From Thermoplasmata archaeon (GTDB taxonomy: Archaea; Thermoplasmatota; Thermoplasmata; Lutacidiplasmatales; UBA184), in contig JAKAYT010000006.1 of NCBI GenBank assembly GCA_021826685.1, positions 1 to 56,405 on the forward strand: DNA of 56,405 nt, given 5' to 3'. A program made the translations under genes and the position numbers. The notes below the pieces were generated by a model, which did not search any database, was not told where the DNA came from, and saw nothing but the letters and a program-made list of their open reading frames with translations. How positions within the stretch are numbered: the stretch's first letter is position 1; the number at the start of each line of letters is the position of its first letter. Shown here in pieces: positions 3,412-39,502 of the stretch.

Positions 3412-3514
3412 CGCCCTGGTCGGGAGTTTCGGGCCCGGGGGAGACCCCGAGCGCCTTCGAACCCGAGTCCCAGGCTCGACAGACCTAGATCCTAGACCAC
3501 TAGACTACCAGGGC
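3412..3514 (-). tRNA. tRNA-Asp(GUC) with 30-nt intron in the T-loop (intron 3426-3455, position 59/60)
   Basis: Acceptor GCCCTGG/CCAGGGC+G; anticodon arm TAGGT-CTGTCGA-GCCTG; T-stem TCGGG/CCCGA; removing the intron restores TTCGAAT and gives 73 nt; BHB central helix TTCG/CGAA with AAG and ACT bulges. Confidence 0.93.
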
Positions 3515-5954: not shown

Positions 5955-6670
5955 TGTCGCGGAGGGTACGCGGCGGAAGCGTCGTCCTGCTTTCCGGGGG
6001 GATGGACTCCGCGACCTGCCTCGCGATCGCGTCGGCCCGCCATCCGCCGGTGCACGCGCTGAGCGTGCGATACGGTCAGAGGCACTCGCGCGAGGTCGCG
6101 AGCGCCCGAGCCCTCGCCCGATTCTTCCGTGCGGCGGAACACGTCGAGCTCTCCCTGCCGATCGGGCCGCTCTGGGACTCGGCGCTCACGCATCGCGACC
6201 GTCCTCTCCCGCGCGGTCGCTCGGCCCGGGCGACGATCCCATCCACGTACGTCCCGGCGCGGAACACGATCCTGCTCGCCCTCGCGCTCGGATACGCGGA
6301 GAGCCACGGGCTGGACCGGGTCTACCTGGGCGTCAACGCCGTCGATTACTCCGGATACCCAGATTGCCGGCCGGAGTTCCTCCGCGCCTTCGAGCGCCTC
6401 GCGCGTCTCGCCACCCGCCGCGGGGTGTCGGGAGGTCGGCCGATCCGGATCGTGGCCCCGCTCCTATGGCGCTCCAAGGCCGAGATCGTCCGAGCGGGGG
6501 ACCGACTCGGGGTCCCGTGGGAGCTCACGTGGAGTTGCTACGCCGGAGGCCCCCGGCCGTGTGGTCGGTGCGATGCCTGCCGGCTACGCGCTCTCGGCTT
6601 CGCGAAGGCCGGTCGCGCGGATCCGGCGCTCGCTACTTTGCCGCGGCGCCGGCGACGACGGGCGGGGTAG
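5954..6670 (+). CDS. queC: 7-cyano-7-deazaguanine synthase
   Basis: SGGMDS, YGQRH, TYVPARN, YPDCRPEF and SCY...CGRCDAC motifs; ATG overlaps DUF92 stop (TGATG). Confidence 0.96.
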   Translation: MSRRVRGGSVVLLSGGMDSATCLAIASARHPPVHALSVRYGQRHSREVASARALARFFRAAEHVELSLPIGPLWDSALTHRDRPLPRGRSARATIPSTYVPARNTILLALALGYAESHGLDRVYLGVNAVDYSGYPDCRPEFLRAFERLARLATRRGVSGGRPIRIVAPLLWRSKAEIVRAGDRLGVPWELTWSCYAGGPRPCGRCDACRLRALGFAKAGRADPALATLPRRRRRRAG

Positions 6671-37140: not shown

Positions 37141-37770
37141 ATGCGGATCATCGAAACGTTTCACTCTCTTCAGGGCGAGGGACCGCTGACCGGTGTTCGC
37201 ACCACGTTCGTCCGGGCGGCCCGGTGCAACCTGAGATGCACGTGGTGCGACACGAAGTACTCCTTCGGGCCCGGCCACGAGCGATCGGTCGCCTCCCTCG
37301 TCAAGGAGGTCGAACGAAACCGGACCGGCTACGTGTGCCTGACCGGGGGCGAGCCGCTCCTCCAGCGCGAAAGCGTCCGGTTGGTGCGCGCGCTTTCCGC
37401 GAAGGGGATCACCACGGTCATCGAGACCGGGGGATCGCTCGACGTTCGCCCCTACCTGGCGATCCCGCGCGCGATCCTGAGCGTCGACGTGAAGTGCCCC
37501 GGATCTCGGATGGAGGCGCACAACCGTTGGTCGAACCTGCCGCTACTCCGGCGAAGGGACGTCGCGAAGTTCGTGATCAACGATCGCGGGGACTATCTCT
37601 ACGCGCGCCGCGCGCTCGCCCACCATCCGACCCGGGCGCAGGTCGTCTTCCAGCCGGTATGGGGGACGCCGCCGGGGCGCCTCGCCGACTGGGTGCTCGC
37701 CGACCGGCTCGACGCCCGGGTCATGTTGCAGGAGCACAAGGTGCTGTGGGGGGACGTCCCCGGCCGCTGA
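37141..37770 (+). CDS. queE: 7-carboxy-7-deazaguanine synthase (radical SAM)
   Basis: SLQGEG, CNLRCTWCDT, TGGEPL and QEHK motifs. Confidence 0.92.
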   Translation: MRIIETFHSLQGEGPLTGVRTTFVRAARCNLRCTWCDTKYSFGPGHERSVASLVKEVERNRTGYVCLTGGEPLLQRESVRLVRALSAKGITTVIETGGSLDVRPYLAIPRAILSVDVKCPGSRMEAHNRWSNLPLLRRRDVAKFVINDRGDYLYARRALAHHPTRAQVVFQPVWGTPPGRLADWVLADRLDARVMLQEHKVLWGDVPGR

Positions 37771-37813: not shown

Positions 37814-38956
37814 ATGAGGCCGGCGACCTCGGCACTCCCGAGCAAGATGGGGACCCAACCGTCCACCAATCCGGGAGGCCTCGGCGGGCTCGTCGCCGAC
37901 TTCGGCAAGGCCCGTTCGATGGTCTTTCCGCGGGTGGTACTCGCCGGACATGGAGTGCTCAACGAGATCGGTTCCATGTGCACCGATTTCGGCTTCGGGA
38001 AGCGCGGGAGCATCATCACCGGACCGACCACCCTGGCCCTCGCGGGCCAGCGGTGCGCGGACCTCCTCGGCGGATCCGGATTCGAGATCGTGACCACGAT
38101 CGCGCACGAGGCGACCGAAGACGAGGTCGCCCGCGTTCAGAAGGAGATCGAAGCCGCCCGCCCGGGCTTCATCGTCGCGGTCGGCGGAGGCTCGAAGATC
38201 GACATCGGCAAGGTGATCGCCGACCGGCTTCGACTGCCTTTCGTGAGCGTCCCCACGTCCGCGGCCCACGACGGGATCTCCAGCCCTCGCGCTTCCCTGC
38301 ACGGGGCGAAGACCTCGACGAGCATCCAGGCCGCGATGCCACTCGGCATCCTCGCGGACACCGAGGTCATCATCCGGGCGCCGTTCCGCCTGCTGGCCTC
38401 GGGATGCGCCGACGTCGTGAGCAATCTGACCGCCCTTCTCGACTGGAAGCTCGCGGTCCGGCTGAAGAACGAGGAGTACTCCAGCACGGCCGCCACCCTC
38501 GCCGAGTACGCGGCTCAGGAGATCGTCGATCACGCCGCGTACATCAAGCCCAACCTGGAGGAGTCCGCATGGATCGCCATCCGCCCCCTGCTCGTCGCGG
38601 GGATCGCGATGAGCGTGGCCGGCTCCTCGCGCCCGTGCTCGGGGAGCGAGCATCTTTTCAGTCATGCCCTCGATAAGGTCGCCGCGCACCCCGGCCTCCA
38701 CGGGGAGCAATGCGGGATCGGCTCCATCATGATGATGAACCTGCACGGGGGCGACTGGCGCCGCATCCAACGCACCCTCCGGATGCTCGGAGCCCCGACA
38801 AATGCGGAGCAGATCGGCGTGAGCGCGGACGAGGTCGTCCGGTCGCTAGTCATGGCGCACTCCATCCGCCCGGAGCGCTACACGATCCTCGGGGCGAACG
38901 GCCTCACACGGGAGGCGGCGCAGCGTCTCGCCCGCGTCACGGAGGTCATCGACTGA
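37814..38956 (+). CDS. egsA: sn-glycerol-1-phosphate dehydrogenase
   Basis: GGGSKID, SAAHDGISS, SGSEHLFSH and HGEQ motifs; true start may be ATG 37847. Confidence 0.95.
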   Translation: MRPATSALPSKMGTQPSTNPGGLGGLVADFGKARSMVFPRVVLAGHGVLNEIGSMCTDFGFGKRGSIITGPTTLALAGQRCADLLGGSGFEIVTTIAHEATEDEVARVQKEIEAARPGFIVAVGGGSKIDIGKVIADRLRLPFVSVPTSAAHDGISSPRASLHGAKTSTSIQAAMPLGILADTEVIIRAPFRLLASGCADVVSNLTALLDWKLAVRLKNEEYSSTAATLAEYAAQEIVDHAAYIKPNLEESAWIAIRPLLVAGIAMSVAGSSRPCSGSEHLFSHALDKVAAHPGLHGEQCGIGSIMMMNLHGGDWRRIQRTLRMLGAPTNAEQIGVSADEVVRSLVMAHSIRPERYTILGANGLTREAAQRLARVTEVID

Positions 38957-39384
38957 TGGCCGAGATCACGCTCATCGCCCACCCGGAAGCGAAGGAGGGC
39001 TACGAGTTCATCTACCAGGGCGGCGCACCCGTGTGCCGAACCTGCCCGTATCGACAGGCGTGTCTCACTCTCGATCCCGGACGACGCTACTCCATCGTCC
39101 GGGTCCGCCCGATCACGCACCCGTGCGCGATGCAGGAGGCCGAGGCGAACGTCGTCGAGGTGCGAGCGGTTCCTCGCACGCTCGTCGTCGACGCGCGAGC
39201 GGCTACGGTCGGTGCCCGCATCGAAGTCGGTCGCTACGCGTGTTCGCGCCTCGACTGCCCGCACTGGTCGGTGTGCGCGGGACCATCGCTCCCTCCCAAG
39301 CAGCAGTACCACATCGAGCGCGTCGACGCCGCTCCGGTCGACTGTCGCATCGGCAGAACGCTCAAACAGGTCGAGGCGGTCTAG
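38956..39384 (+). CDS. UPF0179 family protein
   Basis: ITLI...G.EFIY.G...CRTCPYRQACLTLDPGRRY pattern; TGATG coupling to egsA. Confidence 0.85.
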   Translation: MAEITLIAHPEAKEGYEFIYQGGAPVCRTCPYRQACLTLDPGRRYSIVRVRPITHPCAMQEAEANVVEVRAVPRTLVVDARAATVGARIEVGRYACSRLDCPHWSVCAGPSLPPKQQYHIERVDAAPVDCRIGRTLKQVEAV

Positions 39385-39393
39385 CGCGCGTGC

Positions 39394-39502
39394 GGGGCTG
39401 TGGGGTAGCTACGGGCCCGAGGCATCTCCCTCGGTCCGCTCTACTGGTCCATCCTTCGAGCTTTGGGAGCTCGGGACCCCGATTCAAATTCGGGCAGCCC
39501 CA
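39394..39502 (+). tRNA. tRNA-Pro(UGG) with ~34-nt intron in the D-loop (approx. 39411-39444)
   Basis: Acceptor GGGGCTG/CAGCCCC+A; anticodon arm CGAGC-TTTGGGA-GCTCG; T-arm CCCGA-TTCAAAT-TCGGG; removing the insert restores D-loop AGCTTGGTCCA and gives 75 nt. Confidence 0.9.

Follow-up and report, generated by a model that had tools for sequence, protein, structure and literature searches.

The euryarchaeal tRNA-splicing endonuclease (EndA) of the alpha'2 type is held, by a rule in print, to accept strict motifs only, the spread of introns requiring an enzyme with a loop (available text of PMC4090602, PMC3488258 and PMC12397907). Loops give EndA its breadth (PMC3241643, PMC3488258, PMC5829648, PMC12397907), and the loop-less alpha'2 enzyme of A. 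fulgidus hardly cuts introns that are relaxed or lie in the D-loop (PMC3241643, PMC3488258; for all of these, as far as the available text goes). How, then, is a tRNA gene handled whose D-loop carries an insert on a relaxed motif? Such a gene, tRNA-Pro(UGG), occupies positions 39394-39502 (+) of the window, by which we mean the whole analysed stretch of 56,405 nt (contig C27), in a Thermoplasmata archaeon (Ca. Lutacidiplasmatales, UBA184 group; genome of 1.39 Mb, 67% GC, 90% complete). The insert could be spliced at the sites proposed for it, with or without help to the enzyme; it could be cut in a shifted pairing; it could stay in the tRNA; or it could have destroyed the gene. We consider it very probable that the insert is an intron at 17/17a, spliced by EndA and RtcB, copied from the intron of tRNA-Arg(GCG), and deprived later of one central pair.

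To define the gene, every candidate with at least 3/4 central pairs and at least 3/4 intron-helix pairs was excised and the product passed to ARAGORN. Fifteen of the 227 BHB-like excisions yielded a tRNA; among these, removing exactly 39411-39444 gave the highest score for Pro(UGG), 116.7. A covariance model made from the other tRNAs of the genome, all of them free of D-loop introns, aligns the gene over its full 109 nt and places the insert in the D-loop; in the standard tRNA numbering, as we take it to apply, the site is 17/17a. The junction left by excision is identical in intron-less Pro(UGG) orthologues and in the intron-less paralogues Pro(GGG) and Pro(CGG), and neither end of the intron can be shifted. 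The boundaries are thus exact, as a sister genus has its Pro(UGG) without the intron at this very egsA-UPF0179 locus. The initial annotation, which had called a tRNA-Pro(UGG) with a D-loop intron at these positions, starting 9 nt past the UPF0179 stop (39384), is confirmed in these points, also by a covariance alignment, a kind of check that it had proposed; the uncertainty of 1-2 nt that it had left at the boundaries is removed. By default ARAGORN reports no gene at the locus and with the intron option mis-calls it as Thr, and an Rfam search of the locus gave no match. A self-splicing group I or group II intron was ruled out by the length of only 34 nt and the lack of an Rfam match to a large ribozyme core. 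As to a viral origin, the intron-junction pattern had no exact match in viral_contigs. The coordinates are given in Table 1.

Table 1. Features of the tRNA-Pro(UGG) locus, in window coordinates.
Feature	Position	Strand	Remarks
queE-like radical SAM gene	37141..37770	+	best models are QueE, below their cut-offs
egsA, glycerol-1-phosphate dehydrogenase	37814..38956	+	NF002022 above cut-off
UPF0179 gene, 142 aa	38956..39384	+	PF03684, E 3.9e-34; stop 9 nt before the tRNA
TATA-like AT-rich hexamer inside the UPF0179 3' end, candidate promoter	39361..39366	+	~33 nt before the tRNA
tRNA-Pro(UGG) 5' exon (positions 1-17)	39394..39410	+	G12-G15, 5' strand of central helix; C16-U17, first two 5'-bulge bases
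34-nt intron at 17/17a	39411..39444	+	hairpin 39412-39438; central-helix strand 39439-39442; first two 3'-site bases 39443-39444
tRNA-Pro(UGG) 3' exon (17a-73)	39445..39502	+	anticodon UGG 39464-39466; CCA not encoded

Of 24 genomes of the same genus, 22 have the intron-bearing gene, and the two in which it was not found are 62% and 67% complete. At least 143 loci were examined, including at least 120 from metagenomes, and six of them are cut off before the 5' exon. Among the matches listed, the intron is present at 136 of the 137 loci with a readable 5' end (117 distinct forms, 31-36 nt), and the sole intron-less locus (L236) has a different acceptor stem and flank. The exons of 22 aligned orthologues are invariant except at positions 16-17. 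Exons are in general near-invariant, with compensatory changes in the anticodon stem, while the intron hairpin drifts with compensation: in 22 sequences, which are kin and not independent, four hairpin pairs changed on both sides (14 such cells), and none of 500 shuffles scored as high. Thus the hairpin, read as such from the start, is not due to chance. Among the matches listed, its first four pairs are kept in 117, 116, 115 and 115 of the 117 distinct copies, and its first pair begins exactly three bases after G15 in all 117. In two metagenome genes (L277 and L172) the intron tail differs from the rest.

The geometry of the splice sites is that of a BHB-type intron in its relaxed form. In the productive register, G15-C and A14-U pair, U13 faces a C, and G12 pairs with U, giving 3/4 central pairs; at the 5' site a 3-nt bulge lies flush with the intron-side helix h'. 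The exon-side helix does not form (1/4 pairs; its first pair, G11-G18, is impossible). The strict hBHBh' form is thus lacking on two counts, as only 3/4 central pairs exist here and in 116/117 copies among the matches listed, and no helix h closes the 3' bulge. What remains, a central helix, one bulge and h', is the relaxed HBh' form, made looser than the textbook case by the central mismatch, as had been described for this gene initially. In all three genomes of genus g19 and in genome G078 the same register has 4/4 central pairs. Since these relatives pair perfectly there, we regard the cut register as confirmed, and by this comparison the mismatch is probably derived.

In the precursor, once transcribed, exon bases G12-G15 would pair with the 3' end of the intron (3/4 pairs), so that the 5' site would form a 3-nt bulge abutting the intron hairpin and the 3' site would lie in an open loop. 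EndA would then cut after the second base of each site, excising the 34-nt intron from the only tRNA-Pro(UGG) found in the genome, and RtcB would join the exons, so that a normal D-loop is restored.

Both enzymes expected of a host with BHB-type splicing are encoded, as one EndA gene and one RtcB gene were found in the genome. The EndA (354 aa) has two PF01974 and two PF02778 matches in one ORF, with TIGR00324 above its cut-off and the PRK09300 models below theirs. The structural unit comes first and the catalytic Tyr-His-Lys unit last, the triad aligning in the C-terminal unit; by sequence the enzyme is of the alpha'2 homodimeric type, its dimer state being predicted. The catalytic unit has no CSL insert, as its alignment with A. 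fulgidus and M. jannaschii is gap-free where the chimera 3p1y has the CSL; nor does it have a C-terminal insert on alignment to the same two enzymes, and none of 38 Thermoplasmata EndAs has an insertion at the CSL site. None of the broad-specificity designs was found ((alpha-beta)2 with CSL, epsilon2 with ASL, an L3 loop, or a three-unit chain), and no second EndA gene was seen in this 90%-complete genome. An epsilon2 or split EndA was rejected on the single two-unit ORF and the gap-free alignment. In the Thermoplasmata alignment no EndA residue was seen by eye to track the intron load.

That load is heavy. A relaxed ARAGORN run and a loose acceptor-stem scan were swamped by false matches, and nhmmer with the uninterrupted tRNAs of the genome was used instead, together with the covariance model. 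Of the 37 tRNA genes obtained, 19 are uninterrupted and 3 have an intron in the anticodon loop. The other 15 hold non-canonical introns, 16 in all: 4 lie in the D-loop and 12 at 59/60 in the T-loop, and among these T-loop introns seven have a mismatch in the central helix. The initial annotation, correct as to the gene, had taken the Pro intron singly and missed that it is one of 16. Non-canonical introns occur in all eight Thermoplasmata families sampled (one genome each). Counted by reading the alignment of covariance-model matches, with at most 150 candidates per genome, and leaving out two long matches and genomes G027 and G028, genes with D- or T-loop inserts among the matches listed number 18/36 in family f3, 7/32 in f11, 5/41 in f10, 3/37 in f2, 3/38 in f6, 1/37 in f4 and 1/38 in f8. 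Since these genes are overlooked or mis-called by ARAGORN and Rfam, the tRNA counts on which MAG quality is judged are too low in this group.

Several individual genes illustrate the variety. In the window, tRNA-Asp(GUC) (3412-3514, -), for which ARAGORN gives a wrong 84-nt gene, has a 30-nt T-loop intron (3426-3455) at 59/60 with a perfect central helix. Elsewhere in the genome, tRNA-Lys(UUU) (L161, C14:30441-30583, +) has one D-loop and one T-loop intron, the initiator tRNA (L165, contig C32, -) has a D-loop intron near 20/21, and tRNA-Leu(UAA) (L166, C14:57854-57974, -) has an anticodon-loop intron whose central helix, by reading, is about 2/4 in the 37/38 register, no filtered excision giving the right anticodon. 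The canonical intron of tRNA-Trp (L167, C20:4386-4549, -) is 91 nt long and contains what we take to be box C/D-like motifs, as in euryarchaeal Trp introns. In family f3, tRNA-Arg(CCG) (L302, G026:C22:61976-62094, +) apparently has three introns (17/17a, 37/38 and 59/60), and several T-loop introns of 13-14 nt have a common tail, which suggests recent copying.

If splicing occurs at the sites proposed, the alpha'2 EndA might still depend on an accessory factor or on the tRNA body, or might cut slowly. This is a variant of the explanation that we prefer, and we find it possible, if rather unlikely. In its favour are the lack of a loop insertion in EndA and the folding results, as the predicted probability of the productive register is low even in the perfectly paired Arg(GCG) intron (median 0.06). 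It also has an analogue in M. kandleri, whose loop-less EndA removes an HBh' D-loop intron inefficiently (available text of PMC5829648); further published exceptions, as described in the available text, are Korarchaeum with an alpha2 enzyme and three thermophilic methanogens. Against it, the splitting of 15 of the 37 tRNA genes, and the mismatches in more than half of the T-loop introns, suggest that such substrates are handled routinely.

A competing fold has to be considered next. Sliding the pairing by two bases lets G12-G15 pair with the last four intron bases (4/4), keeps a 3-nt bulge and adds an exon-side helix, at -37.6 vs -28.9 kcal/mol for the productive register. Among the matches listed, folding favours the slid form in 113/117 copies, all four of its pairs exist in 111/117, and the mismatched C and the wobble U of the productive register are kept in 115/117. 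EndA might therefore cut there, or the slide might act as a switch that delays splicing. Cutting the slid pairing would, however, leave a tRNA without U17a and G18, and G18 is near-invariant in tRNA; moreover, the g19 genomes and G078 lack the slid pairing and have the productive one, and the Arg intron has no such slide. Minimum-energy folding was dropped as a guide to the register, as it fails for the perfectly paired Arg intron too. As g19 and G078 keep only the productive pairing and folding misguides for Arg, we take the register of the initial annotation as the one used, and a role of the slid form, either as substrate or as switch, appears improbable.

Were the insert retained, the tRNA would have to function with a hairpin on its D-loop. 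The RNA libraries show unspliced contigs only, as this would predict: contigs that reach the intron carry it, several run from UPF0179 into the unspliced tRNA, and no spliced joint was found in contigs from eight out of ten RNA runs, seven of the eight giving contigs of relatives and one giving nothing, contigs being a poor means of showing short spliced tRNAs. Such contigs may be DNA, and hence show neither co-transcription nor a lack of splicing, or they may be precursor. Retention needs, besides, neither the constant three-base spacing of the hairpin nor a 3' tail of BHB geometry, and we consider it very improbable.

A second, uninterrupted Pro(UGG) serving as the functional copy, the possibility that the initial annotation had raised against its own reading, was found neither in this 90%-complete genome nor, as an exact intact-D-loop pattern, in any of 90 other genomes of the genus (g1); across family f1 the count was 0/114, but the pattern cannot see genus g15, which is intron-less with a different anticodon stem, and hence only the g1 count is used. 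That the insertion made the gene a pseudogene, another copy being missing from the incomplete assembly, is already largely refuted by these counts and by exons held near-invariant with compensatory changes while the intron drifts, and is hardly credible. CCA codons are in use (270/5057 Pro codons). The Pro(CGG) gene, which relatives in the genus have, was not found in the whole genome, probably because the assembly is only 90% complete. In 8/8 genus genomes checked, neither Pro(GGG) nor Pro(CGG) has an intron. At the end of the T-stem, both Pro(UGG) (39478-39494) and Pro(GGG) (L144) have A53-U61 and not the usual G53-C61, and the Pro(CGG) of relatives has G-C there.

Where did the spliced intron come from? 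The tRNA-Arg(GCG) gene on contig C22 also has an intron at 17/17a (32 nt), between the same exon bases as in Pro. All four of its central pairs are present in 28/28 distinct copies of the genus and in 24/24 further loci. The Pro and Arg intron interiors have a mean similarity score of 6.3 vs at most 2.6 for the 12 T-loop introns, and a structure-preserving null gives -1.9 +/- 1.3 with a maximum of 2.3 (200 replicates). If the two genes were still exchanging sequence, their introns should be closer within than between genomes; in 13 genome pairs the scores are 6.0 within and 5.85 between, 43% of permutations being as high, and hence there is no sign of ongoing copying or gene conversion. The Arg intron is the more widespread, with matches in 52/60 further genomes of the genus, in f3, and in each of the family's six other genera, and it occurs also in g15 and f3, where the Pro intron is absent. 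The wider spread makes it likely that copying went from Arg to Pro; by these comparisons the older Arg(GCG) intron is the probable source of the Pro intron, which would have entered a tRNA whose exon bases on either side match those of Arg. The tail of the metagenome Pro intron L277 is one base from a common Arg(GCG) tail, and may stem from renewed copying or from an error.

Among 24 genomes searched in other genera of the family, 17 have a Pro(UGG) match. The intron tail of the present gene is repeated in ten of these, from genera g16 and g20, and the tail in g19 (n = 3) ends like the Arg intron. All three g15 genomes with a Pro(UGG) match have an empty site at the same egsA-UPF0179 locus. 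Farther away, Pro(UGG) is intron-less in both f3 genomes, and has an intact D-loop in f2, with an anticodon-loop intron in G029. In a quick, unrooted tree of one gene, EndA, genera g1, g16 and g20 group together (SH-aLRT 98), apart from g15, g17, g18 and g19. The central pair would have been lost later, in the g1/g16/g20 clade; these sequences fit either a single gain followed by loss in g15 or two separate gains. With its empty, perfectly paired and degraded alleles, this one syntenic site documents cleanly how an intron is gained by copying from one tRNA to another.

The initial annotation had also placed the tRNA in a queE-egsA-UPF0179 polycistron and linked the intron, next to G15, with archaeosine and QueE. 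The gene order is conserved in 13/13 genomes of g1, g16 and g20, which agrees with the first proposal; a TATA-like codon bias within UPF0179 weakens it. Among the matches listed, the Leu-Lys codons at -34..-29 are TTG in 72/107 and AAA in 62/107 parsed upstream regions (10/117 were not parsed), vs 3.9% and 5.7%, respectively, in 101 other ORFs of the genus. In the genome, 12 of 31 tRNA genes have an AT-rich box at -35..-31; the box in UPF0179 is weak here. As rare Leu and Lys codons are enriched at the distance seen in other tRNAs, it is plausible that a promoter embedded in UPF0179 serves the tRNA itself. The link with archaeosine is not supported: one intron-bearing g19 genome has no queE in the 3.4 kb upstream, two g15 genomes lack it in this stretch as well, and it was found within 1.5 kb of the same-site Arg(GCG) intron at 0/30 loci. 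As the intron pairs with G15, archaeosine would come after splicing. A queC gene lies in the window (5978-6610, +), 31 kb from queE, and a TGT gene on another contig; 3' of the tRNA is a gene for a CPxCG-related zinc finger (PF19769; 39541-40392, +), which adjoins it in 5/22 loci of relatives.

tRNA introns of the non-canonical and the relaxed sort are already known, and neither position 17/17a nor the class-wide pattern can be called new on the literature covered. We found no literature on tRNA introns in Lutacidiplasmatales or at 17/17a, older catalogues lying outside the search; the main text of the Lutacidiplasmatales genome paper does not contain the word 'intron'. Non-canonical introns of Thermoplasmata are probably already in GtRNAdb, as the available part of the tRNAscan-SE 2.0 supplement (PMC8450103) has a Lys(UUU) of 139 nt in Ca. 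Methanomassiliicoccus intestinalis and an iMet of 119 nt in Aciduliprofundum sp. MAR08-339; these fit the Lys(UUU) and iMet introns described above by length, the rows giving no intron positions. The present analysis contributes the empty site in synteny, the alleles with a perfect helix, which fix the register, the copying test, the signal of an embedded promoter and the census of eight families.

In Asgard archaea (bioRxiv 10.64898/2026.10.13.758758, available text), D-arm introns are likewise missed by annotators and many lack a canonical BHB, although the EndA there is mostly (alpha-beta)2, unlike the alpha'2 type here; the main text of that preprint does not mention Thermoplasma. Thermoproteales and ARMAN-2 (available text of PMC4090602, PMC3239211 and PMC3488258) resemble the present host in having many introns outside 37/38, including 59/60 and the D-arm, and similar introns common to different tRNAs, read there as transposition; the position list, itself open-ended, does not contain 17/17a. 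Their EndA is (alpha-beta)2 with CSL or epsilon2 with ASL, and the present host has neither. The interest thus lies in the mismatch between enzyme and substrate, and the intron itself is of a known kind. It may be, tentatively and with the balance tilting slightly against it, that a plain alpha'2 EndA cuts mismatched, helix-less motifs by an undescribed route and that in two families 40-50% of tRNA genes are split in the D- or T-loop, at crenarchaeal levels; if so, the rule that only loop-bearing EndAs let introns spread would be overturned, and the Pro(UGG) intron, whose competing fold is conserved, would be a sharp substrate for testing it.

The closest relative known to us, in the available text of Kaneta et al. 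2018 (PMC5829648), is pre-tRNA-Glu(UUC) of Methanopyrus kandleri, where, as here, a D-loop intron with a relaxed HBh' motif meets a euryarchaeal EndA without a loop. The M. kandleri intron lies at a different position in a different tRNA, and its EndA is (alpha-beta)2, whereas here the enzyme is of the fused alpha'2 type, the central helix of the motif is itself mismatched, and non-canonical introns number 16 genome-wide. With an apparently essential tRNA on a doubly relaxed motif and a loop-less EndA as the sole one found, the present host makes the published EndA rule directly testable.
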